Shown: positions 695 to 23,876, counted from the stretch's first letter. The stretch is 64,000 nt of DNA from Methanosarcina sp. (GCA_049706495.1 JBNAKO010000030.1:40-64039), one strand, 5' to 3'. Notes: generated by a model from the sequence alone, not told the origin. Numbers and translations are program-made.

Positions 695-1435
695 ATTATA
701 CGAATTGTACATCTTTCGGATATCCATTATTCAGATGCTTATTTTGTTGAGGAAATTGCAGATTCTATGCTTGAGAGTATTAATCTGGCCAGGCCGGATC
801 TCGTTGTTATTACTGGGGATTTAACGGAAAATGGGTTTTCTGTTGAGTATGATGGGGTAAAGCAGTTTATTGATAGAATTGAATGTGAAAATAAGGTGCT
901 TGTGCCTGGGAATCATGATTCGAAAAATGCGGGGTATTTGCATTTTGAGGATCTTTTCGAGAGCAGATTTTCTTCACAAAGTTTTGGGAAGGTTATGATT
1001 GTAGGAGCAGATTCTTCCCAGCCTGACCTTAATGAAGGACATATAGGCAGGGAAAACTATGGATGGATAAAAGAAGCTTTTTCAGGTGAAGAGTTCAAGA
1101 TTTTTGCCCTGCATCATCATCTTGTGCCTATTCCGCTGGCTGGAAGAGATAATACCGTACTTGTGGATGCAGGAGATATTCTTGAACTTCTGAACAGGTG
1201 CAAGGTAAACCTTGTGCTGTGCGGACACTGTCATATACCCTGGGTCTGGAATCTGAATAACATGCTTGTAGTAAATGCAGGGACAGTTTGCTCTTCAAAG
1301 ACAAGAGGAAAAACAACTCAATGCTATAACCTGATCCAGGTGGATGATGAGAACTCGGAAGGCAACTGGAAAGTTCAAATATCCAGGGTTTCTTCAGCAG
1401 GAGATGTAGAATTGGTTACTGAAACGGCAATGTAA
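695..1435 (+). CDS. Calcineurin-like metallophosphoesterase (Icc/CpdA-like)
   Basis: Motifs HLSDIH (upstream of the track ATG at 767, same frame), TGDLT, PGNHD, LHHH and GHCH. The frame is open from 677. The start is probably non-AUG near 695-698, so the start coordinate is uncertain. Confidence 0.85.
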   Translation: MIRIVHLSDIHYSDAYFVEEIADSMLESINLARPDLVVITGDLTENGFSVEYDGVKQFIDRIECENKVLVPGNHDSKNAGYLHFEDLFESRFSSQSFGKVMIVGADSSQPDLNEGHIGRENYGWIKEAFSGEEFKIFALHHHLVPIPLAGRDNTVLVDAGDILELLNRCKVNLVLCGHCHIPWVWNLNNMLVVNAGTVCSSKTRGKTTQCYNLIQVDDENSEGNWKVQISRVSSAGDVELVTETAM

Positions 1436-6064: not shown

Positions 6065-6865
6065 ATGAAAATAGAATCTGTGAAATTAGTTTATTTTACA
6101 CCTACCGGAACAACAAAAGCGGTTGTTAAGGGCATTGCAAAGGGTATTAATCCGGATAACATGGAATTAATTGATATTACCAGACCAGATGCAAGAAGAC
6201 AACCGTTAATGACCTCGGAAAATGAATTGCTTATAGTTGGGGTTCCCGTCTATATGGGAAGAGTGCCAGCATTATTAATTGAATGGCTGAATTCGATTCA
6301 GGCCCATAATACACCTACTGTCTGTGTTGTTATCTATGGTAATCGTGTTTATGACGATGCACTGCTGGAACTAAAAAATACTGTAATGAAATGTGGGGGT
6401 ATTCCCATTGCCTGCGCAGCATATATCGGAGAACACTCATTCTCGAATTCTGAGACCCCAACAGCACAGGGACGTCCCGATAACCATGATCTGCACCATG
6501 CTGAAGTTTTTGGACAGAAAATATGTGAAAAACTGAAATCTATTTCATTAATTTCTCAAATTTCTGATGTATACGTGCCTGGCATTTATCCCTATAGGGG
6601 AGATTCGAAGTTATGGAATGTTGATTTTATCGCAGTAAGTAATGAGTGTTTACAGTGTGGAATCTGTGCAGAGAATTGTCCTGTTGGTGCTATTGATGCA
6701 GAAAACTCCCATTTGATTGATATTGAAAAATGCATTACCTGCTGTGCGTGTATTAAAAATTGCCCGCAAAATGCCAGATCAATGAAACCCGGGTTGGTAA
6801 AAGACGCATCGGTGCGACTCCATACGCTCTATAGCCAGCGGAAGGAGCCTGAATATTTCATCTGA
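6065..6865 (+). CDS. Flavodoxin-domain plus 2x[4Fe-4S] ferredoxin protein (EFR1-like)
   Basis: YFTPTGTT flavodoxin loop, VYMGR and YGNRVYDDAL. Two CxxCxxCxxxCP motifs. Confidence 0.9.
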   Translation: MKIESVKLVYFTPTGTTKAVVKGIAKGINPDNMELIDITRPDARRQPLMTSENELLIVGVPVYMGRVPALLIEWLNSIQAHNTPTVCVVIYGNRVYDDALLELKNTVMKCGGIPIACAAYIGEHSFSNSETPTAQGRPDNHDLHHAEVFGQKICEKLKSISLISQISDVYVPGIYPYRGDSKLWNVDFIAVSNECLQCGICAENCPVGAIDAENSHLIDIEKCITCCACIKNCPQNARSMKPGLVKDASVRLHTLYSQRKEPEYFI

Positions 6866-6968
6866 ACGAATATATTCCAGTTAAAGAAAGCGGGAAATTA
6901 GAAACGTTCATTTTTAAATCATATAACTAATAGTCATAATATGAATACAGGTTACGTGAAGTGGAACT

Positions 6969-7682
6969 ATGGGAATTGCTGAGAGAAGAGAACGAGAAAA
7001 GGAACAGCGAAAGACCGAGATTATAGATGCGGCCGAACGTCTCTTTTTTTCTCGAAATTATGAAGATGTTTCCATGGATGAGATTGCCCATGAGGTAGAA
7101 CTGAATAAGGCTACCATTTATTTGTATTTTAAAAATAAGGAGACACTTTTCGCAACCATTGTACTCCGTGGTATCCAGATCCTTAAAGAAAAATACACGG
7201 AATACATGGAAAAACAGGTGCCTGGTATTGTCAAGGTAGCCCTTATGGGCCAGGCCTATTATCAATATTCACAGGAATACCCCGATTATCTTCGAATGAT
7301 ACATTTTTACGGTTCTGAGCGTTTTTCTAAAGAAAACCCGTGTACCGCAGAGATTGGAAAGGGATATGGCACCTGCCGTATGATGCTGCGAGATGCGATC
7401 CAGGAGGGTATTGATGACGGTACAATCCGGGCCGATCTCGATCCGTTTCTGACCTCTATGTACCTTATGATCTCCTTTATGGGTATTTTGTCTATGGAAA
7501 ATAAATGGAAACTGGTGATCGAGGCAGAAGGGTTCAGCTACGAGCAGTTTGCCTGTGAATTTTTCCGGTTCATTATTCCTGCCATCTCTTCCAGCGAAAC
7601 ATCTCACAAAATGGATGTTAAAGGTTTCGCATCATTTGGGTTCTCTTTAACCGCGCCTGTGACACCTGAGAAGAAAAAATGA
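6969..7682 (+). CDS. TetR/AcrR family transcriptional regulator
   Basis: N-terminal HTH IIDAAERLF...SMDEIAHEVELNKATIYLYFKNKETL. Confidence 0.92.
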   Translation: MGIAERREREKEQRKTEIIDAAERLFFSRNYEDVSMDEIAHEVELNKATIYLYFKNKETLFATIVLRGIQILKEKYTEYMEKQVPGIVKVALMGQAYYQYSQEYPDYLRMIHFYGSERFSKENPCTAEIGKGYGTCRMMLRDAIQEGIDDGTIRADLDPFLTSMYLMISFMGILSMENKWKLVIEAEGFSYEQFACEFFRFIIPAISSSETSHKMDVKGFASFGFSLTAPVTPEKKK

Positions 7683-8099
7683 AAAAATATTAAATTTTTT
7701 AGAATTTTAAAGTTAAATTTTTTTCTCGTCTGCTGCATTTATATTCTTGATTTTCGCATCTCCAATAAGTAGGCGAGTTTAGCCCGAGATTATAAAATCA
7801 CTGGTTTTGTTCTACAAGAATCAAACTCATTTGGAGCGATCTGTTGAGTGTTCGAAGTATTAATAATACTAATCGAAATCTATATGACTTAACATTTCAC
7901 CCCAAAAACCGCTCCCTTGATCTCCTTTCATCTCCTTCCCATCCAATACTCACTTCACCCTTCTAACCTGGAAAGTCAAGAAGAGTTATTTATCATTCCT
8001 AGAGATGTATAGTTCTCAATAATTTTTTCGTTATCATTTACTTTGCAACAATTAACCTGTCAGTAATGAATTTTGCGAGAGTTTTAAATAAACATTTTT

Positions 8100-8410
8100 A
8101 AAAGAATACTTTCACCTTATTCCTAACCTCTGTTCCATAAAAGATAGTGCAGTTATCAAAGAATAGAGAGGCATGACAGACGTAAATTAAGAGAATTTCT
8201 TTGGAATTTACCGTAATAATATTGAAACAGTCAACCGTCTCATAAACCATTTTGAAAAAAGCCAACACGTGGAAGAATGTCTCAATATATCCCAAAATTA
8301 TGATGCACAGTGGGATTTTCAACCCACGAAATCCTTCGACCAGATCTTAAGTCTGGCGCCTTTAAACTGGCTTGGCAACTCTCGCATATTAAGGGCAGAT
8401 TTATAGACAT
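8100..8410 (+). pseudogene. Possible decayed coding remnant of unknown family
   Basis: A protein-like + strand frame (KEYFHLIPN...ENFFGIYRNNIETVNRL...LRADL) broken by stops. No family recognised. Confidence 0.25.
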
Positions 8411-8585
8411 CCGAGGGGTCAACTTATAAACAAAAGCAAGCTTTAATGAAAGCCCGCAATTTAATTTTTCAGATGACTCACAATTCTATAACCAGGGCAG
8501 CCGCAAAGAGAGTTGGAAGGGCTGAGAATAAAATCCTTTCCTATGATTAACCCTTGAAAGCTGAGAAAGCCTGCAGAATTCTGGC

Positions 8586-8864
8586 TCAGATCCTGTGCAT
8601 GAAGCGAAAAGCATCTTCATGCTGTACCTTAACCTCAACTCCAAGACTTTTTCCCTCAGCATTCATAGCCTCCTGAAAAGCCGTAAGGTTAAAGTTTTCT
8701 TCCGGGGCTTCGGCAAGCATGATCATAGTGAAAATGCCCTGCATAATAGTCTGACTTATATCAACAATGTTCACATTGAAACTTGCCATCACCGAAGTAA
8801 TTCTGGCAACTATACCTACACGGTCGCTGCCTATAACTGTAATAATGAAACGACTGGATGTCAC
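8586..8864 (-). CDS. ACT domain protein (UPF0237)
   Basis: IITVIGSDRVGIVA...NIVDISQTIMQGIFTMIM...QHEDAFRFMHRI. GGTGGAG SD before the GTG at 8864. Confidence 0.92.
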   Translation of the reverse strand: MTSSRFIITVIGSDRVGIVARITSVMASFNVNIVDISQTIMQGIFTMIMLAEAPEENFNLTAFQEAMNAEGKSLGVEVKVQHEDAFRFMHRI

Positions 8865-9126
8865 TGATATCTCCACCAGGCCTGTTTTTCAGGTCTTTTA
8901 AAGAACTAAGAATTATATAAGTTTTATATTTTAACAACAGTATCTCTAAATTTGCTCAAATGAGGGCTTGATAGCTAATAAAGTAAACTGTTGAGAATTA
9001 TATTATCCCAAGTAACCATTCAGAACCAAAAGAATCAAAAATAGTGTTATTGACTGCTACCAGATATTAAAACAAAGTTCTAAAAACTTTGTTCCAAGTA
9101 GATTCAATCAAAAAACTCAACATATC

Positions 9127-9624
9127 TCAAGAACATAGCACAGCTATTTTTTCAACAACATGCTGAATATCTTCTTTACCTTTGATTTTTATTGAAAAAT
9201 CAGCATACTGTTGATAAAGAATTACTCTTTCTTCAAAAAGTTCTTTAAGACTTTTATCTTTCAGTCCAATTATTCCCCTTTTTCTTGCATTTGGAATTCT
9301 TTTAACAATACTTCGAAAAGGGGTATCCAGAAAGACGATTTTTGAAATATTTTGTAAATGAAGCATGGCTTTTTGAGAATAAATAATGCTTCCGCCAGGA
9401 GAAATAATACAATTATCTATTTTTTCAAGGTTTAAAATAACTTTTTCTTCAAGTTTGAGCAGGGCAAGGTCGCCCTCTTTGTCGATAAGCTCTTGCAGAG
9501 GGACTCCGGTTTTTTCCATAACAAGGCGATCGATATCAATAAAAGTATAACCAAGGCTCTTTGCAAGCGCCTTTCCAATAGTGCTTTTTCCCGCTCCTGC
9601 CATGCCGATTAGTGTTATGTTCAT
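9127..9624 (-). CDS. aroK: Shikimate kinase, bacterial AroK/gluconate-kinase P-loop type
   Basis: NITLIGMAGAGKST Walker A, DID, E-x-x-V and SPGGS motifs, ER-x-x-LY near the C terminus. Confidence 0.8.
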   Translation of the reverse strand: MNITLIGMAGAGKSTIGKALAKSLGYTFIDIDRLVMEKTGVPLQELIDKEGDLALLKLEEKVILNLEKIDNCIISPGGSIIYSQKAMLHLQNISKIVFLDTPFRSIVKRIPNARKRGIIGLKDKSLKELFEERVILYQQYADFSIKIKGKEDIQHVVEKIAVLCS

Positions 9625-10160
9625 AAAAATATGCCCCAAAACCTCTAAGGATAGGGACGCTTCAAATCTAAATGAAACTCCGCCTAGAAATTATCATTAA
9701 ATATATAAATTATTGCTCTATACAAAAACTTTTTATAATCAGCTTAAAATTCATTCAAATTAATTATTTCCAGTATTTTCATAATTACCAGTGCTTCGAT
9801 TCCAAAGTCGATTTCTCATATTCTTTTAATTTTGGAAATATTCTTTGAGTCTTTTTTACCATCTGCCTGATCCTTACATTCAAGCATGTAACAAAATTAT
9901 ATAATTAAATAATTTTATCCCAAGTATATATTTCTTTGAATTATCAGGAATGTTTATAGTAATAATTAGTAGTACTGTATTTATTGAGACAAAGTACATA
10001 TAAATTGATATTGAATATATATTTTGGTCAAACAAATATAGTTATGCTAAAAAATTTATACAGTTGTAAAAAAGGAGTAAAATTTTGAAAAAAATGAGCT
10101 TTTTTTAGCTTTTCTTCAAAATAAAAATATTATTGTAAAAATTATCTGGAGTTACCGTTT

Positions 10161-11195
10161 ATGAAAAAGAGTTTTTTAAACAAAAAATGGATTAGCGGGT
10201 TATTATTTGTTTTTATACTAATTAGTGCTTCTTTTTCAGGTTGTGTTGATTCTGACCAGGAGCAAGAAACAGCGGCAGAAGCAGCAAAAACTACACAAAC
10301 CGAAGAAATTCCCAAGCCTCAAGCAAATATAAAAACCGAAACTGCTGTACAAACCGTTACAGAAGGAAAAAACACTTCAAAAGAGGAACTTAAAACCCTG
10401 AAAATAGGACTTATCCCTGCCGAAGATTCGGCTGAAATGATTGAAAAGTTCGAACCTGTACGGCTTTACCTTGAAAAAGAACTTGGAATGGAAGTCCAGA
10501 CTTTCACAGCCACGGATTATACATCTGTAGTTGAAGCAATGCGTTCGGACAAAGTAGATGTAGGCTTTTTCGGGCCACTTTCCTATGTACTGGCTGCTGA
10601 ACAGGCAGGAGCCGAAGCAATTATTGCAGGCGGAGAAAACGGAACTCTTGGTTCATACACAAGTTGCATTATTACATACAAAGGTTCCGAAATTAACAAC
10701 ATGGACGATCTTTTCAAGAATTCGAAAGATCTTACCTTCTCTTTTGTCGACCCCGCCTCAACTTCAGGAAACTTAATTCCCAGAGGATATCTCCTTTCCC
10801 AGGGCCTTAATCCTGACACTGATTTTAAAGAGTGCGTTTTTTCAGGCGGACATGACGCTTCAGGCCTTGCAGTAAAGTCAAAAAAAGTTGATGCAGGTGC
10901 CATATACAACATCGGGTACAACAGGATGGTCGAAGAAGGTATTCTGGATAAAGAAGAGGTTTTCATAATCTGGGAGTCCGACCCGATTCCAAGTTCTCCG
11001 ATTGCAGTCAGAGGAAGCCTGGACCCAGAGCTTAAAGAAAAAATCCAGAAGGCCTTTTTGGACTTGCAGGTAAAGGATCCTGAAGCAATGGAGATTTTTG
11101 AAAGCCAGTGGGAAGAAAATAAAGAATATGTACCAGTCAATGACAGTACATACGATTACATCCGTACCATTGCCAGGGGCCTTGATTATATTTGA
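10161..11195 (+). CDS. phnD: Phosphonate/phosphite ABC transporter substrate-binding lipoprotein
   Basis: Lipobox FSGC. GLIPAED, DYTSVVEAM, FGPLSYV, DPASTSGNLIP and GGHDAS motifs. First gene of the phn cluster. Confidence 0.92.
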   Translation: MKKSFLNKKWISGLLFVFILISASFSGCVDSDQEQETAAEAAKTTQTEEIPKPQANIKTETAVQTVTEGKNTSKEELKTLKIGLIPAEDSAEMIEKFEPVRLYLEKELGMEVQTFTATDYTSVVEAMRSDKVDVGFFGPLSYVLAAEQAGAEAIIAGGENGTLGSYTSCIITYKGSEINNMDDLFKNSKDLTFSFVDPASTSGNLIPRGYLLSQGLNPDTDFKECVFSGGHDASGLAVKSKKVDAGAIYNIGYNRMVEEGILDKEEVFIIWESDPIPSSPIAVRGSLDPELKEKIQKAFLDLQVKDPEAMEIFESQWEENKEYVPVNDSTYDYIRTIARGLDYI

Positions 11196-11207
11196 AGGTG
11201 GCCTGAG

Positions 11208-11951
11208 ATGCTAACTGTGAATAACCTTGCAAAAAAACTTCCGGACGGCAGATATCTGCTAAAGGATATAAATTTCAGTGTCAGAAAGAGTGAATTTGTT
11301 GCAATACTGGGGCTTAGCGGCACCGGGAAAACAATCCTGCTCAGGTGCCTGAATGGCCTTACAATGCCTGATGCAGGCAGGGTTTTGCATACCCATAACG
11401 AGGAGACGCTGGACATTGTGTACAGCAATCCTAAAACAATCCGGGAAATCCGAAAAAGGACAGGCATGATTTTTCAGAACTTCAACCTGGTAAAGAGAAA
11501 ATCCGTAATCGAAAATGTGCTTATGGGGAAGCTGGGAAATATGCAGACCCTTGGCAGTATTCTTGGAAAATTCACGGATGAAGACCTGGAAATGGCTTCA
11601 AGAGCTCTTTACAGGGTAGGAGTCCTGAACCTTGCTCATCGGAGGGCAGGTACCTTAAGCGGGGGAGAGCAGCAAAGAGTTGCAATATCCAGGGCAATTA
11701 TGCAGGAACCGCATCTTTTACTTGCAGATGAACCTGTAGCAAACCTTGATCCTACAACTGCAGATTCCGTGATGAGATATCTTAGATCGATTTCAGTAGA
11801 AGACGGAGTCAGCACACTTGCAGTACTTCACCAGCCTGAACTTGCCCGGAAGTATGCTACAAGAATTATTGGAGTAAGGGGCGGGGTCGTTGTTTATGAT
11901 GGAGACCCGAAAATTCCGGAAAGCTCCTTAAAAGAGATCTATGGAATGTGA
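11208..11951 (+). CDS. phnC: Phosphonate ABC transporter ATPase
   Basis: GLSGTGKT, MIFQNFNLV, LSGGEQQRVAI, LADEPVANLDP and VLHQ motifs. Confidence 0.93.
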   Translation: MLTVNNLAKKLPDGRYLLKDINFSVRKSEFVAILGLSGTGKTILLRCLNGLTMPDAGRVLHTHNEETLDIVYSNPKTIREIRKRTGMIFQNFNLVKRKSVIENVLMGKLGNMQTLGSILGKFTDEDLEMASRALYRVGVLNLAHRRAGTLSGGEQQRVAISRAIMQEPHLLLADEPVANLDPTTADSVMRYLRSISVEDGVSTLAVLHQPELARKYATRIIGVRGGVVVYDGDPKIPESSLKEIYGM

Positions 11952-12833
11952 GTGATTATGATAATTCAAGAAGGGTTTTTAAGCGGGAATCTTGAAAAAA
12001 AGTCAACTAAACCGCAGTATAATCTTGATGAAGGTTATAAACGGGTAGATAAAATCCGGAAGTCGAGGCTCTATCATTATATTCTGCCTGGACTGATATT
12101 TATTTTCTTAATCTGGAGTATTATCAGTACGGATTTTAGTCTAACTGCCCTTGTTGAAGGTTATCCGTATATTATAGACTTCCTGGCCGCAATGTTTCCG
12201 CCAGCCTGGGATAAGTTCATACCTATGATCGAGCCTGCTGTCGAAACAATACAAATGGCATTCCTTGGTACTTTTTTCTCGGTCTTGCTTTCAATTCCGA
12301 TTGCAATTTTTGGGGCAAATAATTTAACTTCCTCAAAACTGTTGAGAGGAATTTCAAGGAGCTTGATCGCTTTCACAAGGACTGTGCCTGACCTTGTATT
12401 CGCATTAATTTTCGTTTCTGCAGTTGGGCTTGGGCCTGTTCCCGGAATTCTTGCGCTCTCTATCCATTCTATAGGGATGCTTGGAAAACTGTATGCAGAA
12501 GCAATAGAAGAAATAGACATGGGGCCTGTAGAAGCAATGGAAGCCCTTGGAGCAAGTAAGCTTCAGTCAATTTTTTATGCCATAATTCCGCAGGTAACTC
12601 CTTCTTTTGTGGCTGCAACCCTTTACAGGCTTGATATCAATGTCAGATCTTCTATAGTGCTTGGGTTAGTAGGAGCAGGTGGAATAGGATTTGAACTTAT
12701 GATGGCGATGAGGTTATTCAGATACGAAGAACTCCTTTCTATCCTGATTATCATCTTTGCAATTGTATTGTCTGCAGAAGCAATCTCAAATTCTATCAGG
12801 AAAAACATCATTGGGGAGGAAACCTTGAAATGA
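11952..12833 (+). CDS. phnE: Phosphonate ABC transporter permease
   Basis: ETIQMAFLGT, RTVPDLVFAL, GMLGKLYAEAIE and DINVRSSIVLGLVGAGGIG motifs. Confidence 0.93.
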   Translation: MIMIIQEGFLSGNLEKKSTKPQYNLDEGYKRVDKIRKSRLYHYILPGLIFIFLIWSIISTDFSLTALVEGYPYIIDFLAAMFPPAWDKFIPMIEPAVETIQMAFLGTFFSVLLSIPIAIFGANNLTSSKLLRGISRSLIAFTRTVPDLVFALIFVSAVGLGPVPGILALSIHSIGMLGKLYAEAIEEIDMGPVEAMEALGASKLQSIFYAIIPQVTPSFVAATLYRLDINVRSSIVLGLVGAGGIGFELMMAMRLFRYEELLSILIIIFAIVLSAEAISNSIRKNIIGEETLK

Positions 12834-13249
12834 ACAGGGATCGCAGGTTTGAGTTGCTTGCACGGGCAGGCAAAGAAGAATTATGCAAGCTTGCAGAAAA
12901 GGTGCTCGAAGATGTGGATATAAAGGTTGTAAAAAAACCGACACCAGGTATGATTATGATGCGCTGCAGGGATAATGCCCATTCCTGTGTATTTAATTTC
13001 GGAGAAGTCCTTGTAACAGACGCTGAGGTAAGTATAGAGAATTCGACAGGATACGCAATGGTAATGGGTATGGAACCTGAGAGAGCGCTTGCGGGTGCTA
13101 TTCTGGATTGTGCAGTAGAAGCAGGGCATGCCCTTACATCAGAGATTCTTTTTATGCTGCAAGCAGAAGAGCAAAGGCTGCAGGAAGAAAAAGTCAGGAC
13201 CTGGAAAGAAATCGAAACTACAAAGGTAGATTTTGAGGTGATGCTGTGA
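12830..13249 (+). CDS. phnG: C-P lyase complex subunit PhnG
   Basis: PTPGMIMMR...FNFGEVLVTDAEV...G.AMVMG...ALAGAILD. ATGA overlap with phnE. Confidence 0.92.
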   Translation: MNRDRRFELLARAGKEELCKLAEKVLEDVDIKVVKKPTPGMIMMRCRDNAHSCVFNFGEVLVTDAEVSIENSTGYAMVMGMEPERALAGAILDCAVEAGHALTSEILFMLQAEEQRLQEEKVRTWKEIETTKVDFEVML

Positions 13250-13905
13250 TAGGGGCCAAAGACTCCGATTTTGACCATGTATTTGATTCCCAGCATATCT
13301 TCAGGGTACTTCTTAATACTATGGCCAAGCCCGGAAAGATCGGTATACTCCCAAGTCTGGCTATTAATCCTCCTGAAGAAAACCCGTATCCTTTCCTTGT
13401 ACTACTTGCTTTGCTGGATAGAGAAGTAAGTTTCAGTGTTCAAGGAAATGTAAAAGATCCCGAGAAAGTTATGAAATACCTTGAACTGAATACAGGAAGT
13501 AAACCCGGAGACTTGGGAACCTCTGATTTTATATTCGTGTATGGAGGTAGCTCGAAAGGGCAGGTTTGCAGGGCAAAAACAGGCAGTTTCAGATATCCTG
13601 ATAAAAGTGCAACAATTGTGTATGCTATAGATTCTATTTCTGACCCTACTTCTAACTTTACTTCTGATTTTATTTCTAACTCTGTTTCCGATAGAAGGGC
13701 TTCGGAAAAAGAAAAGGTTTTACTCGAACTCTCAGGTCCCGGAATAAAGGAAAAATGTATGTTAGCGTTTTCCGGAATCGAAAAAAAAGAGATACAGGAC
13801 CTTATTTCAGTCAGGGAATTCCCGCTTGGAATTGATGCTATGTTTTGTGATAAAAAAGGCAGGATAGTAGGTATCCCAAGGTCTTCCAGCGTAAAGATAT
13901 CCTGA
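13246..13905 (+). CDS. phnH: C-P lyase complex subunit PhnH
   Basis: SQHIFRVLLNTMAKPG, ALLDREV, GSFRYPDKSAT, LSGPGI and FPLGIDAMF...GIPRS motifs. Confidence 0.92.
   Translation: MIGAKDSDFDHVFDSQHIFRVLLNTMAKPGKIGILPSLAINPPEENPYPFLVLLALLDREVSFSVQGNVKDPEKVMKYLELNTGSKPGDLGTSDFIFVYGGSSKGQVCRAKTGSFRYPDKSATIVYAIDSISDPTSNFTSDFISNSVSDRRASEKEKVLLELSGPGIKEKCMLAFSGIEKKEIQDLISVREFPLGIDAMFCDKKGRIVGIPRSSSVKIS
13633..13692 (+). repeat. In-frame 12-bp tandem repeat x5 inside phnH
   Basis: tctatttctgac cctacttctaac tttacttctgat tttatttctaac tctgtttccgat. Confidence 0.8.
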
Positions 13906-13914
13906 GGGACAAAG

Positions 13915-15198
13915 ATGGGTTATGTACTTGTAAAAGGGGGAAGTGAAGCCATAAAAAATGCAAAGAGGCTGGTTGAGCTAATTCGTACCCAGGCTTCTGA
14001 ACCTCTGGAAATTTCGCAGTTGAAAGGCAGGCTAAAGCTGGCTGTTGACCAGGCAATGGGAGAAGGCGGGCTTTATGCACCTGAAACAGCAGCCCTTGCG
14101 CTTGAGCAGTCAGAAGGCGATATCATAGAAGCCTCCTTTAAGATAAGGGCATATCGAACTACCCTTCCCAGAATATGTTATTCCGAAACTCAAGATACAG
14201 AAGATATGTTTGTCCTTCGCAGGATTTCCTCGGCTTTCAAGGATATCCCTGGAGGACAAATTCTTGGCCCAACGATTGATTACACTCAGCGGTTCATCGA
14301 TTTTGGTCAGGAGGAAAACAAAAAAGAAGCCAAAATCAAAAGCCAGAACCGGATCAAAAATGAAAAAGGCAAAATCCCCGAGAATGAGGATAAATCAGGA
14401 ACTTCTGAGCTGACAAACTCTAAATTAGAAAATTCTAAGCTTGTAAATTCTAAGTTAATAAATTCCAGATTATCAGATTTCAAGTTATCAGATTTCAAGT
14501 TACCAGATTCTAAACTGACAGTTTCTGAAAAACAGGAAGAAAACTATGAATTCCCAGCTTTTAAGAAAATTGTTGATCTTCTAAAAGAGGAAGGAGTCAT
14601 TGAAGTCCCTGCTGGATCTTCGCTAGATGAAGAAGAGCCTTATGATGTAACAAAAGATCCGCTTGTTATTCCGGCTTCAAGGTCAGCTCGTTTGCAGACC
14701 CTGGCAAAAGGAGAGACAGGAGCAATGCTGATGTTTGCCTACAGTATCCTGCGAGGGTTTGGAGCAACCCATCCAACACTTGCAGAATTAAGGGTCGGAT
14801 ATATTCCTCTTCGAATAAAACACCCTTATACCGGAAATATAGTAAGTGTAGGGGAGATTCTGGTAACGGAGTGCGAATGTATAAATTCAGGAATGGGGTC
14901 TGGCACTTCCAAAAATATAACTGAAAATAAGAAATTTGCTATGGGATACGGGCTTGTAATGGGGAAAAACGAGAGAAAGGCTATTTCCATGAGCATGCTT
15001 GATGCAGCAATGAATACTTCTGAACCCAAGGCCCCTGCCGAGGATGAAGAATTTGTTCTTTATCATATAGATGGAGTGGATGGGATGGGATTTGTAGAAC
15101 ACCTGAAACTGCCTCATTACGTATCTTTCCAGTCAACTCTTGATAGGTTAAGGGCAGTACAGAAAAAAACAGAACCGGAGAGCTCGGCAAATGAGTAA
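13915..15198 (+). CDS. phnI: C-P lyase subunit PhnI (ATP/phosphonate nucleosidase)
   Basis: YVLVKGG, MGEGGLYAP, RAYRTTLPR, RRISSAFKDIPGGQILGPT, HPTLAELRVG, GKNERKAISM and YHIDGVDGMGFVEHLKLPHYV motifs. Confidence 0.95.
   Translation: MGYVLVKGGSEAIKNAKRLVELIRTQASEPLEISQLKGRLKLAVDQAMGEGGLYAPETAALALEQSEGDIIEASFKIRAYRTTLPRICYSETQDTEDMFVLRRISSAFKDIPGGQILGPTIDYTQRFIDFGQEENKKEAKIKSQNRIKNEKGKIPENEDKSGTSELTNSKLENSKLVNSKLINSRLSDFKLSDFKLPDSKLTVSEKQEENYEFPAFKKIVDLLKEEGVIEVPAGSSLDEEEPYDVTKDPLVIPASRSARLQTLAKGETGAMLMFAYSILRGFGATHPTLAELRVGYIPLRIKHPYTGNIVSVGEILVTECECINSGMGSGTSKNITENKKFAMGYGLVMGKNERKAISMSMLDAAMNTSEPKAPAEDEEFVLYHIDGVDGMGFVEHLKLPHYVSFQSTLDRLRAVQKKTEPESSANE
14416..14520 (+). repeat. In-frame 15-bp tandem repeat x7 inside phnI
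   Basis: Units such as aattctaagcttgta, aattctaagttaata and gatttcaagttatca encode NSKLE-NSKLV-NSKLI-NSRLS-DFKLS-DFKLP-DSKLT. Confidence 0.85.
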
Positions 15199-16069
15199 GC
15201 TTGAAAGTTTATTAAAAAATGAGAATATTATTGAGAAAGGGTATAATTTTGCGTTTCTTGATGAATTTACGAAGCGAGAAGTCAGAAGAAATATTCTTAA
15301 AGCCATAGCGATTCCGGGTTATCAGGTGCCTTTCGGGTCAAGAGATATGCCGCTTGCACGAGGTTGGGGGACAGGCGGAATTCAAATAACTCTTTCCATT
15401 ATTGGAAAATCCGATGTCCTTAAGGTTATTGATCAGGGATGCGATGACAGTATTAATGCCCTGAATATTAAAAACCTGATCAGCAGGATGACCGGAATTA
15501 AGACAACCGAGGATACAAAAGAGGCAAATATTATTCAGACCCGGCACAGGATCCCGGAAGAGAAGATGACAGAAGAGCAGATCCTTGTTTTTCAGGTGCC
15601 CGAACCTGAGCCGCTGAGAAAAATAGAGCCTAGTGAAGTTGAAACCAGAAGAATGCATGCCCAGAAAGATTACAGTGCCATGTGGCTCCACCTTTACGAG
15701 GATATTGTCAGGCATGCTCAGATCACGGTCAGTTCCTGTTATCCTGTAATGGTTAACAGCAGATACATTATGGATACAACTCCAGTTCCCAGATGGGATG
15801 TGCCCAAACTGCATAAATCCGGAGCCATAAACATTTTTTGTGCTGGCAGGGAGAAACGAATCTACGCAATTCCCCCGTTCACAGAAGTTGAGCCTCTTGA
15901 ATTCGAGGATTATAATTTTTCAGTAGAGGATTTTGCAGGAAAGGCCTGTGAGAAATGCAGGAGCACGGAGACTTATCTTGATGAAATTCTTGATGAAAGT
16001 ACAGGTATCAGGCGGTATTTCTGTTCGGATACAAGCTATTGTGAAAAGGTCAGGCAGGGAAAAGCATGA
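15191..16069 (+). CDS. phnJ: Radical-SAM alpha-D-ribose 1-methylphosphonate 5-phosphate C-P lyase
   Basis: GYNFAFLDE, AIAIPGYQVPFGSR, RGWGTGGIQ (glycyl-radical Gly region) and IQTRHRIPE motifs. Intact CX2CX21CX5C. Confidence 0.97.
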   Translation: MSKLESLLKNENIIEKGYNFAFLDEFTKREVRRNILKAIAIPGYQVPFGSRDMPLARGWGTGGIQITLSIIGKSDVLKVIDQGCDDSINALNIKNLISRMTGIKTTEDTKEANIIQTRHRIPEEKMTEEQILVFQVPEPEPLRKIEPSEVETRRMHAQKDYSAMWLHLYEDIVRHAQITVSSCYPVMVNSRYIMDTTPVPRWDVPKLHKSGAINIFCAGREKRIYAIPPFTEVEPLEFEDYNFSVEDFAGKACEKCRSTETYLDEILDESTGIRRYFCSDTSYCEKVRQGKA

Positions 16070-16950
16070 GTTCAACCTTGAATAAGTCCGATTTTATTAG
16101 CCCGATTAACAAGCCCAGAATTAATAATCCGATTCTCAGAGTCCAAAATCTTACAAAAATTTATGGAGAGGGCTGTCCGGACTGCATTGAACTAACAGGC
16201 CCGGCTTATGGAAGTAATATCTGTCCAGTTTGTAACTCGATTGTAGCCTGTGCACAGATTTCTTTTGAGGTAATGGGTGGAGAAATCCTTGGGATTGTCG
16301 GGGAAAGCGGTTCAGGGAAAAGCACTACTGTCCGTTGTCTTTACTATGATGAGGAACCCACAGCAGGAGAGGCCTATTTAAGCTGTTGTGGGGAACAAAA
16401 TATTTTCAGGTTGAGTGCTCAGAAAAAACGAGAAATTCGGAATTTTTATACTGGTATGGTTTACCAGAATCCTCAGCTTGGGCTCAAGCTAGATATCTCG
16501 GCTGGAGGAAACATTGCCGAAAAATTGCTGGCTGCAAACTGGAGGCATATGGGAAAAATGAGGGAGAGAGCCCGAGAACTCCTTGAACAAACTGAAATCC
16601 CTATAGAACGGATGGACGAAATTCCCCGCAATTTCAGCGGAGGAATGCAACAGCGAATCCAGATTGCAAAAGCCCTGGCAAATAATCCTGAAATTCTTCT
16701 TTTTGATGAACTGACAACCGGCCTTGATGTATCTGTGCAGGCAAGAATTCTGGACCTTATAAAGCAGATCAGAAGAATTACGGATGCAGGGATGGTCCTG
16801 ATTACACACGACCTGGGGGTAGTAAGGCTGCTTGCAGATAGGACCCTTGTAATGAAAAATGGGCGGATTGTTGAATCCGGACTTACGGACCAGATTCTCG
16901 AGGATCCCCAGCACGAATATACCCAGCTCCTTGTAAATTCGGTTTTGTGA
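16066..16950 (+). CDS. phnK: C-P lyase ABC-type ATPase PhnK
   Basis: GIVGESGSGKS, GMVYQNP, SAGGNIAE and FSGGMQQRIQIAKAL motifs. C-terminal DQILEDPQHEYTQLLVNSVL. Confidence 0.94.
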   Translation: MSSTLNKSDFISPINKPRINNPILRVQNLTKIYGEGCPDCIELTGPAYGSNICPVCNSIVACAQISFEVMGGEILGIVGESGSGKSTTVRCLYYDEEPTAGEAYLSCCGEQNIFRLSAQKKREIRNFYTGMVYQNPQLGLKLDISAGGNIAEKLLAANWRHMGKMRERARELLEQTEIPIERMDEIPRNFSGGMQQRIQIAKALANNPEILLFDELTTGLDVSVQARILDLIKQIRRITDAGMVLITHDLGVVRLLADRTLVMKNGRIVESGLTDQILEDPQHEYTQLLVNSVL

Positions 16951-16951
16951 G

Positions 16952-17704
16952 GTGAACTGTTTGGAAAACTGGCATTTAGAAATCCAGAATCTAACGAAAA
17001 CATTCAAGATGAGCGTACTTGGAGGCAAACAAATACACGGTTTTCATAATATAAGTTTCAGGGTTCAAAGAGGGGACTTTATGGGAGTTATCGGAAAAAG
17101 CGGTTCAGGAAAGTCCTCCCTTCTCAAATGCATTTATCGAACCTATATCCCGGACAAAGGATATGTTCTTTATAAAAACGAGGATGGAGAGATAACAAAT
17201 CTAACTTTTGCAGATGACCATACTCTTCTGGACTTTAGAAAGCAGGAGATAGGGTACGTGGCACAGCTTTTAAGAGCAGTACCCAGAGTTACGGCTCTTG
17301 AAATCATTGCAGAGCCTCTTCTTCTGAAGGGGGTTGATCCGGGTATTGCAAAAGAAAAAGCAGCCCGGTATCTCGAACGCCTGCTTATTCCGGAAGAACT
17401 CTGGGAAGCTTATCCTTCGACTTTCAGTGGGGGAGAAAGACAAAGAGTAAACATTGCAAGGGCCCTGATTTCAGCGCCCAAGCTCCTGCTTCTGGATGAG
17501 CCTACATCTGCTCTTGACCCTGTCTCTACACAAATAGTAGTCGAAATGCTTGAGGAAATAAAGCACAAAACAACCATGATAGGGATTTTTCATGACATGG
17601 CAGTTGTAGAAAAACTTGCAGATCACCTGCTCGTAATGAAGGACAACAAAATGAGAATGTTTGGAAAAACAGAGGAAGTCCTGGCTACAGAGGGCTTAGC
17701 ATGA
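16952..17704 (+). CDS. phnL: C-P lyase ABC-type ATPase PhnL
   Basis: GKSGSGKSSLLKCIYRTY, EIGYVAQLLRAVPR, YPSTFSGGERQRVNIAR, LLDEPT and GIFHD motifs. The start may be the TTG at 16961. Confidence 0.94.
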   Translation: MNCLENWHLEIQNLTKTFKMSVLGGKQIHGFHNISFRVQRGDFMGVIGKSGSGKSSLLKCIYRTYIPDKGYVLYKNEDGEITNLTFADDHTLLDFRKQEIGYVAQLLRAVPRVTALEIIAEPLLLKGVDPGIAKEKAARYLERLLIPEELWEAYPSTFSGGERQRVNIARALISAPKLLLLDEPTSALDPVSTQIVVEMLEEIKHKTTMIGIFHDMAVVEKLADHLLVMKDNKMRMFGKTEEVLATEGLA

Positions 17705-18876
17705 GATTCAACATCATTAATGCAAAAATTGTAACGCTGGATTCAGTTATTGAAAATGGCACGCTTGAGATAGAAGATAAAAATATTATAGGCATCAGGG
17801 AAAAAGAAGAAATTGAATCAGGAAAAGAAATCGAGACTGCCAAATCTGACGGAGTGCTTGATGCAGCAGGCAAATATGTTTTGCCCGGAATAATCGATAT
17901 TCATGGAGATGACCTTGAAGGAGTTATTTCTCCAAGGCCTTCGACAAGGTTTCCTATAGAACTTGCTCTTTTGCAGGCTGACAGAAAATATGTAGCCTGG
18001 GGAATTACAACAAAACTGCATGCCCTTTCATATTATGACGACGAGCTTAAAGACAGACATGCTGGAGCCTCTATTGAAATTATGGAAGCTCTGGAATGTA
18101 TTGAAGATAAACTCCTGACTGAGCATTTCATTCATGTGAGGTGTGAAATCGGGCATGAAATGAAAGATGCTTTCGAAGCCATTGAGAACCGTTTTGTTAA
18201 ACTGGTTTCGGTAATGGACCATGCTCCAGGCCAGGGGCAGTTTAATGATCCTGCAAAATACATCGAATTCCACAAGGGAGCATATAACTTGAGTGATGAA
18301 TTCCTGGAAAAGCTCATGAAAAAGAAAATGGATCTCAGTTTCAGTGATTTGAAGTTAGAGAAGATAAGGGAAGTTGCCAGAAGAGCAAGGGACAGGAACT
18401 TGCTTTTGGCCTCCCATGATGATGACAGTCCTGAACATGTGGAATTCTTACACAGTCTTGGAGCCTGTCTTTCAGAGTTTCCTATAAATTTGGAAGCTGC
18501 AAAAAGAGCAAAGGAGTTGGGAATGATCATTTCAATGGGAGCCCCGAACCTCATCCTTGGAAGATCGACTGCAAATAACCTCAGTTGTCGGGAGGCCATA
18601 AAGGCAGGGGCTGTAGATGTACTTTGCTCGGACTATTACCCAACTTCGCTTCTTTATTCCGCGTTTCTGCTGCAAAAACTCGAGCTTTTGCCCTTCCCTG
18701 AAGCTGTTAAAATGATAACTTTAAACGCTGCAAAAGTTATGAGCATGGAGGAAAGCATTGGTTCGATTGAAGTGGGAAAACGAGCTAATCTTATTATTGT
18801 TTCTGAAAAGGACGGAATGCCTGTAGTTAGTAATACTATTGTTAATGGGAGACTTGTATACTCGGCGGGAGGATAA
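17701..18876 (+). CDS. phnM: Ribose 1-methylphosphonate 5-triphosphate diphosphatase (amidohydrolase)
   Basis: LPGIIDIHGDDLE, MDHAPGQGQF, ASHDD, SEFP, MGAPNLILGRS and CSDYYP motifs. Confidence 0.95.
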   Translation: MRFNIINAKIVTLDSVIENGTLEIEDKNIIGIREKEEIESGKEIETAKSDGVLDAAGKYVLPGIIDIHGDDLEGVISPRPSTRFPIELALLQADRKYVAWGITTKLHALSYYDDELKDRHAGASIEIMEALECIEDKLLTEHFIHVRCEIGHEMKDAFEAIENRFVKLVSVMDHAPGQGQFNDPAKYIEFHKGAYNLSDEFLEKLMKKKMDLSFSDLKLEKIREVARRARDRNLLLASHDDDSPEHVEFLHSLGACLSEFPINLEAAKRAKELGMIISMGAPNLILGRSTANNLSCREAIKAGAVDVLCSDYYPTSLLYSAFLLQKLELLPFPEAVKMITLNAAKVMSMEESIGSIEVGKRANLIIVSEKDGMPVVSNTIVNGRLVYSAGG

Positions 18877-18878
18877 GA

Positions 18879-19691
18879 ATGAGATTTGGAGCATCTACCG
18901 ACCTTCGGTTCGGGCAGAATAATATAGAATTCCTGGAAATTCTATATTTCAACGGATTCAGCCATATCGAAATCAGAAAAGATAGCGATCATGTATACGG
19001 ACAGGTAAATCCAAGTACATTGCGAAGAAGCTTATCAAAATACGGGTTCACGGTCTCGTATCATGTTCCCCACAGGGAGTTTAATCTCGCAAGCGTTAAT
19101 GAGGATATAAGGAAATGTTGCGTATCCCAGGTAATAGCTATAGGAGAGTATTTGCATGAAATAGGCCAGGGATGGGTGAATATTCATGCCGGACATGTCC
19201 CGAACAGTTATCATAAAAACGCTATTATTAAGGCTAAATCGAATTGTATGAAGTCCCTTGATGAAATTGCAGAGGCCTTTAAAGCCCTGAATACCGAAAT
19301 CTTTTTAGAAAACGACAGTAAGGAAAACGGATTAATCAAATTTGGGCTTACTCCGGTGCAAATGAAAGGACTTTTGGAAGATTACCCTGAATTTTATATG
19401 ACTTTTGATCTGGGACATTGCCATAATTCAGGATTTCAGCCTTTAAATTTTATTGAGCCTCTAAGGGATAAAATCCGGGCTGCACATTTACATGATAATC
19501 ACGGCATTAAAGATGAACATCTGGCCCTTGGGGAAGGAAATGTTGATTTTGCATCTGCTATAAAGCTCCTTGAAGACTGCTGCGAATATTATATTTTCGA
19601 AATGAGATCGCTTTCAGATATAATAAAAAGCAGAGAATATTTGGAATTAATAAAAAATAAAGAGCATATTGAATCCCTGAAGGTTAAATAA
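18879..19691 (+). CDS. Xylose-isomerase/AP-endonuclease-2-like TIM-barrel metalloenzyme
   Basis: NIHAG, LEND, TFDLGH, AAHLHDN...DEHLALGEG and FEMR metal-ligand pattern. Starts 2 nt after the phnM stop. Confidence 0.88.
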   Translation: MRFGASTDLRFGQNNIEFLEILYFNGFSHIEIRKDSDHVYGQVNPSTLRRSLSKYGFTVSYHVPHREFNLASVNEDIRKCCVSQVIAIGEYLHEIGQGWVNIHAGHVPNSYHKNAIIKAKSNCMKSLDEIAEAFKALNTEIFLENDSKENGLIKFGLTPVQMKGLLEDYPEFYMTFDLGHCHNSGFQPLNFIEPLRDKIRAAHLHDNHGIKDEHLALGEGNVDFASAIKLLEDCCEYYIFEMRSLSDIIKSREYLELIKNKEHIESLKVK

Positions 19692-19948
19692 CTACGATTA
19701 AGGTAAATTAAGTACAATTAAAGGTTAAAAAACCACAATCAATGAGTTTTAACTGGCGCTTTACAAATAAAATATTTTCATGTACATAATAAAGAAATTA
19801 CATTTAAAGAAATTAAAGTATTTTAAAAAATTAGAGTATTTTTCCAGGCTATTTTTTTGGCTAAAATTAGTGAAGGAAATTGAGACCGAAGCAGGTTTTC
19901 AGGTTTTCAATTATTCAACAAAAAAAGGAAAAACAAAGGGGGAAAAGT

Positions 19949-20599
19949 ATGCCAGAAGAAATTAATTTCTTCCCTCAGGCTTTGCAAAAAGAAAATAAGA
20001 AGCTTAACGAAAAACCCACTCTACATCCTTCTTCTCAAATAATTAACTGCAAAATCGGGGCCTGGACAGAAATCGGACCTAATTCGCTTCTTATAGAAAC
20101 TGTATTTGAAGATTACAGTTATGCAGATGGAGATGTCTCAATAATATATTCCGAAATCGGAAAATTCTGTTCAATTGCCTCTCATGTAAGAATAAATCCC
20201 GGAAACCATCCAATGGAACGAGTAACCCAGCATCATTGCACTTATCGCCGCATACAATATGGTTTTGATGAAGTTGACGATGAGAACTTTTTTCAATGGA
20301 GGCGAGAGCATAAATGCATAATCGGGAATGATGTCTGGCTTGGGCATGGGGCTGTTATAATGCCTGGAGTAAAGATCGGGACCGGAGCTGTAGTAGGAAC
20401 AGGTGCAGTTGTCACAAAAGATGTGGCTCCTTATGAAATAGTTGCCGGCGTTCCTGCAAGTCCTATTAGAAAGAGATTTTCCGAGGATATAATTGAAAAA
20501 CTCCTGGAAATAAAATGGTGGGACTGGGATAGAAGAACTCTCAAAACAAGGTTTTTTGATCTGATGGATGTTAATAGTTTTGTCAGGAAATACTACTGA
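19949..20599 (+). CDS. Hexapeptide-repeat (LbH, Xat/CatB-like) acetyltransferase of the type found in phn clusters
   Basis: IGKFCSIASHVRINPGNHPMER, IGNDVWLGHGAVIMPGVKIGTGAVVG and VAGVPASPIRKRF motifs. GGGGG SD before the ATG at 19949. Confidence 0.9.
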   Translation: MPEEINFFPQALQKENKKLNEKPTLHPSSQIINCKIGAWTEIGPNSLLIETVFEDYSYADGDVSIIYSEIGKFCSIASHVRINPGNHPMERVTQHHCTYRRIQYGFDEVDDENFFQWRREHKCIIGNDVWLGHGAVIMPGVKIGTGAVVGTGAVVTKDVAPYEIVAGVPASPIRKRFSEDIIEKLLEIKWWDWDRRTLKTRFFDLMDVNSFVRKYY

Positions 20600-20664
20600 T
20601 ATTTTAGATCTATTAGTAATAATATTTTAGATCTGTTACTACCAATATTTTAGCCCGTTTTTAT

Positions 20665-21075
20665 TCACTTCCCTCTTTGCCCACCCTGTTTTATCTGGGA
20701 TTTTGCATTATTAAGTTTGTAAATGCCTTTCTCCAGCTTTTCGGAAGAATTCAAAAAAACTTCCATGTATTCTGAAAGCACAAGTTTAGATCCTGAGATA
20801 TAATATTTAAGTAAGCTTCTGGTTGTCAATTTATCCATATGTTCGAGGGAAATAATAGCGAGATACATAAGCAAGCGTAATAAAAATACCAAATTAAGAG
20901 CCAGAATTTTAACCCAGGGACTATCTGAGCTAATCGCCATTCCACAAATCCAGTTACAAAATTTAATGGATTGTGCAAGGAGCCTTATTTTGTAAAAATG
21001 CAAGAACAAAGCCAGGACTAAAAGGAAAGTTATGCATTTTACTATAGAAAAAAAATCATACGTTATTAAGTTCAT
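20665..21075 (-). CDS. Hypothetical protein (doubtful; only the C-terminal part may be real)
   Basis: 136-aa ORF with no recognisable motif. Confidence 0.3.
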   Translation of the reverse strand: MNLITYDFFSIVKCITFLLVLALFLHFYKIRLLAQSIKFCNWICGMAISSDSPWVKILALNLVFLLRLLMYLAIISLEHMDKLTTRSLLKYYISGSKLVLSEYMEVFLNSSEKLEKGIYKLNNAKSQIKQGGQRGK

Positions 21076-22355: not shown

Positions 22356-23876
22356 TTACTGGAGCCCGTAAATTCCAGGAATTCTCTTTAAAAGCATGCC
22401 TTCAACTACTATAGGGTTTGTCCTCTGAGCAGTAACTAATGCGGTTTCCAGCTTAAACTCCTTTTCAGCATAGATTGTAAGAATCGAATCGCCTTTCTTA
22501 ACGCCTTCTCCCATTTTCTTGTGGATGGCTACCCCTGCTCCTTTGTCATTAGGAGCTCCCGCAAGTCTGGCAATCTCTATTATCCATTTGTTGTCAAATT
22601 CGATAACATACCCATCCGCCGAGGCAAAAATATCTGCAGTATACTGTCCTGCCTGGATATCATTTGAGGTAATTGTCGCGTCTCCGCCCTGTGCTTCTAT
22701 AATTTGTTTCATTTTTTCCAGGGCTTTGCCGCTTCTGAGGGTTTCCAGGGCAAGTTTCTTTCCCTGATCTCTTGCAGCAGCTCCTCCCATTTCGAGCAGG
22801 ATTCCTGCAAGGGCAGCACTCTTTTCGATAAGGCTATTTGGGCCTTCCATGGTTTCCAGGACCTTCAAAGCTTCCCTAACTTCAAGACAGGGGCCCACTT
22901 TTCTCCCTATAGGGGAAGATCCGTAAGTGATTGCACATTCGACATTCATTCCAAGCCTGTGTCCGAGGTTAATCAGGTCTCTTGAGAGTTTTTGCCCATC
23001 CTGGACAGTAGGGACTTTGGTGCTCGGGCCTACAGGAATGTCTATTACTACATTGTCTGCCCCTATTGCTCCTTTTTTTGCCATAATCGAGGCCAGCATC
23101 TGGTAATAAGGGTCAATCGAGAGAGGATATTCGACCCTGATCAATTTATCATCTGCAGGCGCGATATTTGTGGCCCCACCCCAGACAAGGGCTCCTCCTA
23201 CTTTTTCGGTAATTTCCTTTACTTCTTCGGAGCTGAATTCCACGGGACTGAGAACTTCCATGAGATCTGCAGTTCCACCTGCGCCTGTAATTGCTCTTGA
23301 ACTGGTTTTCGGGATTAAAAGCCCGTTTGCTGCTATAATAGGGACAACCAGAAGAGAAATTTTATTTCCGGGCACTCCACCTATTGAATGTTTGTCCATT
23401 ATTGGATGAGTGTCAAACTCAATTTTGTCACCGCTGTCAATCATAGCTCTAGTGAGCCATTCAACTTCGTCATCAGTCATTCCATGGATGTAAGAGGCAG
23501 TTATAAACGCTGAGAGTTCGATATCGCTGAGGTTCTCCTCTACAATATCATTAACAAGCATTTTAATTTCGTCCTGTACAACAGGTTTCTTGTCCATCAT
23601 TTTCTTGATTACACCTGCAGATTTGGAACGAAATGCAGGGACAACTTCAACTGGCTTATCCCATTCTTTAAAATGCTCAAAAACTTCAACAAAAACGCCC
23701 AGAGTTCCCGGAGGAACCATGTCTTCTGTTGTGTCTACAATCGCAGACAAACTTTCCCTCCCGCGAATTCTTACCCTATCCCCAGGATAAACTCCAAGCT
23801 CTTTTGCATCGGCTATGTTGAACAAGACTTTGTGCTGTCCTATTTTTATATTAAAATGTTGTAGCTTTAACTGCAA
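22356..23876 (-). CDS. deoA: AMP (NMP) phosphorylase, archaeal thymidine-phosphorylase family
   Basis: N-terminal extra domain. DKHSIGGVPGNK, PKTSSRAITGAGGTAD, GGATNIAPADD and ARLAGAPNDKGAG motifs. GGAGG SD before the TTG start. Confidence 0.95.
   Translation of the reverse strand: MQLKLQHFNIKIGQHKVLFNIADAKELGVYPGDRVRIRGRESLSAIVDTTEDMVPPGTLGVFVEVFEHFKEWDKPVEVVPAFRSKSAGVIKKMMDKKPVVQDEIKMLVNDIVEENLSDIELSAFITASYIHGMTDDEVEWLTRAMIDSGDKIEFDTHPIMDKHSIGGVPGNKISLLVVPIIAANGLLIPKTSSRAITGAGGTADLMEVLSPVEFSSEEVKEITEKVGGALVWGGATNIAPADDKLIRVEYPLSIDPYYQMLASIMAKKGAIGADNVVIDIPVGPSTKVPTVQDGQKLSRDLINLGHRLGMNVECAITYGSSPIGRKVGPCLEVREALKVLETMEGPNSLIEKSAALAGILLEMGGAAARDQGKKLALETLRSGKALEKMKQIIEAQGGDATITSNDIQAGQYTADIFASADGYVIEFDNKWIIEIARLAGAPNDKGAGVAIHKKMGEGVKKGDSILTIYAEKEFKLETALVTAQRTNPIVVEGMLLKRIPGIYGLQ

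Follow-up and report, generated by a model that had tools for sequence, protein, structure and literature searches.

In E. coli, the phosphoribosyl cyclic phosphodiesterase of the C-P lyase pathway is PhnP, whose accessory gene closes the phn cluster (PMC10574752). Many C-P lyase operons, among them those of anaerobes, cyanobacteria and archaea, are devoid of phnP and phnN, and how the phosphorus leaves the cyclic ribose phosphate in them is a recognised gap (PMC10574752). Archaeal and Trichodesmium clusters without phnNOP are described in a review of 2023, in which the 2H family ('rcsF') is the sole proposed PhnP substitute named (PMC10574752). Precedents for a non-orthologous replacement are this predicted 2H-phosphoesterase (DUF1045) and the PhnPP/cyclic phosphate dihydrolase of Eggerthella lenta, which belongs to the PHP family. 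It was only in 2025 that C-P lyase was reported from ANME and methanogen relatives, in two papers that are silent on phnP and on any replacement for it (PMC12180501, PMC12106651). Among TIM-barrel enzymes, CbiR of Akkermansia muciniphila is a proven metal-dependent, oxygen-sensitive phosphodiesterase that cleaves the ribosyl phosphodiester in cobamides (PMC7733943). A published description of an endonuclease-IV-like barrel coupled to phnM was not found in the literature.

The window, by which the whole analysed stretch of 64,000 nucleotides from Methanosarcina sp. is meant, contains an intact PF01261 TIM-barrel gene of 270 codons with an ATG start and a TAA stop. The ten ORFs on its 5' side were identified with Pfam and NCBIfam models as phnD, C, E, G, H, I, J, K, L and M (Table 1). 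The stop codon of phnM (TAA, 18874-18876) and the ATG at 18879 are separated by GA, so the distance of 2 nt given in the preliminary description was correct. With this gap and a GGAGG at 18868-18872 upstream of the ATG, the two genes are translationally coupled. The barrel gene is the last enzyme gene of the phosphonate operon and the best candidate for opening the cyclic ribose-phosphate product; such genes occur almost exclusively beside phnM or genes of phosphate uptake. A hexapeptide-repeat transferase closes the block. Its true start probably lies downstream of position 19880, since TIGR03308 aligns from residue 40 onwards; the enzyme may be an acetyltransferase of the PhnO type that acts on aminoalkylphosphonates, and no ortholog was found in the other archaeal phn clusters examined. 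PhnI (13915-15198), with 427 aa, is longer than in the other archaeal clusters (336-374 aa); the additional residues fall in a region for which Pfam also reports a PhnG-like match (residues 255-376). Genes for aTrm56 and AMP phosphorylase are located just beyond the phn block, which identifies the host as an archaeon.

Table 1. Features of the window with their positions, counted from its first nucleotide. Aligned residues of E. coli endonuclease IV (Nfo) are given in brackets, in the numbering of the Hosfield 1999 structure, to which PMC7733943 refers.
Feature	Position	Strand	Remarks
Calcineurin-like phosphoesterase	767..1435	+	59% identical to the Metallophos gene inside sister phn/pst clusters; unlinked, 9 kb upstream
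Inserted phn island, approximate limits	9640..20665	.	Flanking genes adjoin in same-genus genomes
phnD, phnC, phnE (phosphonate ABC transporter)	10161..12833	+	
phnG, phnH, phnI, phnJ, phnK, phnL (C-P lyase core)	12830..17704	+	Pfam PhnG/H/I/J; TIGR02324 PhnL above cut-off; PhnK model is the best match for its ORF
phnM (ribosyl-phosphonate triphosphate diphosphatase)	17701..18876	+	NF011990, 408 bits vs cut-off 233; Pfam amidohydrolase match
TIM-barrel metallohydrolase, endonuclease-IV-like, 270 aa	18879..19691	+	Predicted ligands H62 (H69), H103 (H109), E144 (E145), D177 (D179), H180 (H182), H203 (H216), D212 (D229), H214 (H231), E241 (E261)
Hexapeptide-repeat transferase, phn-associated family TIGR03308	19880..20599	+	277.7 bits vs cut-off 201.65; last gene of the inserted block
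AMP phosphorylase	22356..23876	-	TIGR03327, 798 bits vs cut-off 535; archaeal ribose-1,5-bisphosphate pathway, context only

The protein is a member of Pfam family PF01261 (AP_endonuc_2), with 84.4 bits against a gathering cut-off of 31.1 (E=1.3e-23), and its closest solved relative by sequence is MJ1311 (PDB 3wqo, E=2.5e-26, full length). The AlphaFold model (pLDDT 91.7, pTM 0.90) has the alternating strand/helix pattern of a (beta/alpha)8 barrel. With Foldseek, 287 PDB matches were obtained at E<=0.001, and all top matches listed belong to the AP_endonuc_2/xylose-isomerase-like superfamily: 3wqo ranked first (TM 0.85), followed by ketose 3-epimerases and UlaE (TM 0.72-0.83) and by endonuclease IV (TM 0.80). 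Among the NCBIfam models the top match was CbiR (NF041277), which at 47.7 bits is below its cut-off of 105, and the neighbourhood of the gene, made up of phn genes, contains no cobamide genes. The endonuclease IV model NF002198 (18.2 bits vs 244) and the models for ketose and sugar-phosphate 3-epimerases (UlaE, DTE and others; about 20-22 bits vs 272-317) remained far under their cut-offs. The protein does not belong to the PhnP family (TIGR03307) either; as it is a TIM barrel, any correspondence to PhnP is one of functional analogy only. No signal peptide was found.

The metal ligands were assessed in an alignment of 260 sequences, made up of E. coli Nfo, 16 members of the clade and 243 relatives of the MJ1311 type. 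The nine ligands that form the trinuclear site of endonuclease IV are all in register, conserved in 16 out of 16 clade members and in 97-100% of the 243 relatives. Eight of the nine are also matched in a profile-based comparison to Nfo (probability 95%). The ligand set of the xylose-isomerase/endonuclease IV fold that had been recognised in the preliminary description is therefore real and larger than stated there. Ketose epimerases have four metal ligands (PMC7733943, Fig. 6 text), and a set of nine consequently favours phosphoester hydrolysis over isomerisation: by its sequence, the protein has the appearance of a phosphoesterase and not of a sugar isomerase. Conservation restricted to the phn-linked clade is seen at R2, R10 (within an insertion), Y111, K118 and D146, among others, and the clade also has specific insertions. 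The basic residues R2, R10 and K118 would, together with these insertions, suit an anionic bisphosphate substrate. The best explanation of the sequence features is a cytoplasmic (beta/alpha)8 hydrolase of the endonuclease IV/MJ1311 type, with three predicted metal ions.

The close family is tiny, with 22 clusters at 90% identity and, at E<=1e-30, four 50%-identity representatives among 1.84 billion. Among Methanosarcinales MAGs, including ANME-2 and ANME-3-like ones, the gene was found directly after phnM in complete phnDCE-GHIJKLM clusters (loci L008, L009, L012-14/L034, L015, L017, L023 and L025). A sister clade from metagenome contigs (P0023, P0172-P0174) takes the same position in three different full clusters (L102-L106), some of this type having no pst genes nearby. 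Across both clades, the gene usually overlaps phnM or lies a few nucleotides from it. The association with phn clusters is thus recurrent, holding between two clades with 34% identity. In the maximum-likelihood tree, the phn-linked genes form one clade of 27 rows in two branches (ultrafast bootstrap 98, SH-aLRT 81), nested in the large MJ1311-like family, in which the genes outside the clade are found beside unrelated ones. With the exception of one standalone copy, the members of the clade directly follow phnM or belong to clusters derived from that arrangement by deletion.

Co-occurrence was counted over 392 species genomes of the class, which are related to one another and in many cases incomplete, and the counts are a description and not a test. 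PhnJ is present in 14 genomes and the TIM-barrel gene in 23; both were found in 11 genomes, PhnJ without the gene in 3, the gene without PhnJ in 12, and neither in 366. The gene hence accompanies PhnJ in 11 of the 14 PhnJ-positive genomes. One homolog with 45% identity (L034/L012-L014) carries the label 'Patescibacteria group bacterium'. A neighbouring gene of 309 aa on that contig is 80-86% identical to proteins of Candidatus Methanoperedens, and the contig with its full phn-pst cluster is probably archaeal and mis-binned. This 309-aa protein is itself a second TIM barrel, which does not appear to represent a wider phn-linked family: its close relatives occur on many Methanoperedens contigs and two of them are annotated as 'endonuclease 4'.

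The block in the window is bordered by a kinase gene on the reverse strand (9127-9639) and a gene for a 136-aa protein (20665-21075), which are about 0.3-0.4 kb apart in genomes of the same genus. Because these flanks are direct neighbours in the relatives, the phn genes, the TIM-barrel gene and the hexapeptide transferase gene came together in one insertion of approximately 11 kb that is unique within the genus. PhnJ was detected in 0 of 58 other species genomes of the genus (2.3-5.8 Mb each), and the phn block looks like a recent horizontal acquisition. The kinase gene lies outside the island and is conserved in the genus. It encodes a protein of the shikimate kinase fold; at 160.9 bits, under the cut-off of 197, the NCBIfam model that fits it best is the non-canonical 'homoserine kinase' of Desulfo-type organisms.

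The phn cluster of the window was searched for other candidates for the PhnP step, and no metallo-beta-lactamase (MBL), PHP, 2H (DUF1045), PhnP or PhnN gene was found in it. On this point the preliminary description was confirmed for the cluster, with the addition that PHP-domain proteins are encoded elsewhere in the genome: PolX, a histidinol-phosphatase-like protein and three CehA/McbA-like proteins. A phnP ortholog at another location, which would have spoken against a replacement, was not detected in the 91.8% complete genome; the best match was a generic MBL protein with 98.7 bits against a cut-off of 272. PhnN was not found above its cut-off genome-wide either, and neither was DUF1045, the latter being a weak negative since the model matched in no control genome. 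Five other genomes with the same cluster type also lack a PhnP above the cut-off. The MBL protein of 256 aa was rejected as a PhnP ortholog, as other MBL models fit it better and similar matches occur in phn-less control genomes. The generic MBL and the three CehA/McbA-like PHP proteins may nevertheless be candidates for the step.

In many sister clusters there is also a gene for a calcineurin-like phosphoesterase (Metallophos), whose product could be the real cyclic phosphodiesterase. Two orthologs are present in the genome of the window (59% and 54% identity), both unlinked to the island; the gene is absent from the island itself and from clusters L103-L106. A phn cluster without TIM-barrel gene (L125, G301:C35) has a PHP-like gene 2 kb from phnM. 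This was not accepted as a case of mutual exclusivity, since unlinked paralogs with 50% identity exist in the genome of the window. In L125, the genes on one side encode the PHP-like protein, an APH-family kinase and a HAD hydrolase, and alkaline phosphatase is encoded on the other flank (3974-6915 and 15703-16938 cover the flanks). All four could be alternative downstream enzymes.

PhnJ is undetectable in 12 of the 23 carrier genomes of the class, two of which are 99% complete, and in these genomes the TIM-barrel gene is mostly located in pst/PhoU operons. Four reduced arrangements were found in ANME-2: PstS-Metallophos-PhnM-TIM-PstCAB; Metallophos, a 111-nt phnM remnant and then TIM; a PstS'::'PhnM fusion ORF (L027 8665-9993; PstS N-terminus and PhnM C-terminus) followed by TIM-PstB-PhoU; and PstS-Metallophos-TIM-PstB-PhoU. 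In five genomes with a reduced pst-embedded arrangement, PhnJ was found nowhere. In L016 and L019 the pair of PhnM and TIM-barrel gene is retained without PhnGHIJ. Judged by gene content, the pst-embedded forms appear to have arisen by deletion from a phn operon that lay inside a pst operon. Such decayed phn operons in pst/PhoU operons of ANME-2 and ANME-3 (L016, L021, L027, L028, L030, L031, L036 and L038) make up a stepwise deletion series, with a truncated TIM-barrel gene in L038.

In the PhnJ-less pst loci the ligands are intact, and dN/dS is 0.13-0.24 between loci that share a deletion. An intact gene under purifying selection without PhnJ must be useful without the lyase. The standalone copy, in a 99% complete PhnJ-less genome, has also kept all ligands. 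Conversely, in two PhnJ-positive genomes from another family of the class, one of them 97% complete, phnDCE-GHIJKLM ends at phnM and no TIM-barrel gene is present, so a C-P lyase pathway can exist without it. For the gene to survive in PhnJ-less pst operons, its product must accept a wider range of substrates or obtain the same substrate from a second source. PRPP decays spontaneously to this same cyclic ribose phosphate.

A position after phnM that is kept across deep divergence, the co-transfer with the operon, a metal site of the phosphodiesterase type and the lack of a known enzyme for the step together point to a small-molecule phosphoesterase tied to phnM. The simplest substrate for such an enzyme would be the product of PhnJ. 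At a probability of roughly one half, we consider the TIM-barrel protein to be an enzyme that processes the cyclic ribose phosphate of the C-P lyase pathway, as a Pho-linked cytoplasmic phosphodiesterase feeding a route through ribose 1,5-bisphosphate and RuBisCO. In the mechanism that we infer, a barrel of the endonuclease IV type would have been recruited into C-P lyase operons of the Methanosarcinia to handle the PhnJ product. In 5-phosphoribosyl 1,2-cyclic phosphate, the phosphorus would be attacked by a metal-bridged hydroxide and the leaving ribose oxygen would be stabilised by the third metal, with ribose 1,5-bisphosphate as the product of ring opening. As with PhnPP, the reaction may also proceed to ribose 5-phosphate and phosphate. 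Through ribose-1,5-bisphosphate isomerase and form III RuBisCO, phosphonate-derived phosphorus would then enter metabolism as 3-phosphoglycerate.

The downstream genes of this route are present in the genome. Ribose-1,5-bisphosphate isomerase was found elsewhere in the genome with 495 bits against a cut-off of 314, and the gene of form III RuBisCO is split over two contig ends (G000 C211:6001-6900 and C224:1-381; 412 and 155 bits), as far as can be seen by an assembly break and not as a pseudogene. Ribose 1,5-bisphosphate would thus find a ready sink, which would explain the absence of PhnN. The original proposal of a PRcP hydrolase replacing PhnP is upheld in part. It gains from the recurrent phn linkage, the absence of a PhnP above cut-off in six genomes with the cluster, the trinuclear ligands and the precedent of CbiR, and it loses from the 12 of 23 carriers without PhnJ, the two PhnJ-positive relatives without the gene and the rivalry of Metallophos. 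A wider version is advanced more tentatively. For the last step of the C-P lyase pathway, the barrel may be a fourth solution with a structure of its own, yielding ribose 1,5-bisphosphate for the isomerase and RuBisCO without PhnN, and may have in addition a lyase-independent job in phosphate-starved archaea, for example the salvage of cyclic phosphate from PRPP decay. Such a second job would explain why the gene survives in pst operons after the loss of the lyase genes.

Alternatively, the protein could be a general phosphodiesterase or phosphatase of phosphate starvation, acting on 2',3'-cyclic nucleotides, glycerophosphodiesters or PRPP-derived cyclic ribose phosphate, and a passenger of Pho islands without a specific role in the C-P lyase pathway. 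This is a possibility of clearly lower rank than a role on the PhnJ product, and a serious one: purifying selection in PhnJ-less genomes, in pst/PhoU operons beside Metallophos, the intact standalone copy and the existence of phn clusters without the gene are all in agreement with it. On the other hand, the position after phnM is maintained in both clades, including clusters without pst nearby, and the pst-embedded forms, with their phnM remnant and PstS'::'PhnM fusion, have the appearance of derivatives of phn operons. A protein without signal peptide, moreover, cannot directly scavenge external esters. The survival of the PhnM-TIM pair without PhnGHIJ would also fit an enzyme acting together with PhnM elsewhere in the phosphonate pathway, on phosphonate esters or another ribosyl-phosphonate intermediate, with the ring being opened by a Metallophos, MBL or PHP protein. 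The genome does encode two Metallophos paralogs as well as PHP and MBL candidates, and Metallophos is found in many clusters. In E. coli, however, the steps before PhnJ are fully covered by PhnI, G, H, L and M (PMC10574752), Metallophos is missing from the island and from L103-L106, and an MBL match of this kind is also found in phn-less control genomes, which makes this explanation improbable.

Slightly less probable again is a sugar-phosphate isomerase or epimerase acting on the downstream ribose bisphosphate, which had been offered in the preliminary description as the second option. The database name 'sugar phosphate isomerase/epimerase', the structural similarity to ketose 3-epimerases and UlaE and the weak NCBIfam epimerase matches are in its favour. 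These matches reach some 20 bits where about 300 are needed, the invariant nine-residue site exceeds that of the ketose epimerases, and a separate ribose-1,5-bisphosphate isomerase above its cut-off is already encoded in the genome, so the option is disfavoured. The presence of the endonuclease IV ligands, finally, could be taken for an AP endonuclease of DNA repair, or the gene for a functionless hitchhiker. Both are very improbable in view of the low score with the endonuclease IV model, the conserved operon position, the low dN/dS and the conserved clade-specific residues. The structure of MJ1311 reportedly has no DNA-binding groove.

If the protein acts on the PhnJ product, the archaeal C-P lyase pathway would be completed and one branch of the uncharacterised MJ1311 family would receive a function, with a correction of its database name. 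The gene would also be a better marker for phosphonate use and for methane derived from methylphosphonate in anoxic sediments.

Of the described proteins, MJ1311 of Methanocaldococcus jannaschii, deposited as 'D-tagatose 3-epimerase-like protein', is the best match in both sequence and structure, and the nine-ligand set is common to the two. The same set is said to be given for MJ1311 in its structure paper. Their identity is 28%, and the phn-linked clade differs by its own insertions and by R10, Y111, D146 and K118. The genomic setting differs as well: MJ1311-type genes of methanogens adjoin genes for a P-loop (AAA_17/18) kinase, an MBL hydrolase (Lactamase_B_2), a radical SAM protein and thiC, and not phn or pst genes (L039-L093; in L043, at 6417-11677, ThiC, radical SAM protein, kinase, TIM barrel and MBL are encoded). 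Endonuclease IV, a trinuclear-zinc DNA phosphodiesterase, has the same fold and its ligands are in register, so by analogy its three-metal chemistry of phosphodiester hydrolysis is likely shared. At about 17-19% identity, and with Nfo models far below cut-off, the relationship is distant, and the metabolic operon implies a small-molecule substrate, unlike that of Nfo. CbiR belongs to the same superfamily and its model is the top NCBIfam match for the protein and for three relatives, with scores of 37-63 bits against a cut-off of 105 and without cobamide genes nearby. PhnPP uses a multinuclear metal barrel. Its fold and that of DUF1045 differ from the TIM barrel, and neither is encoded in the island. 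With PhnP the protein would share its role in the pathway; PhnP itself has an MBL fold with a binuclear site and no sequence relation to the TIM-barrel gene.
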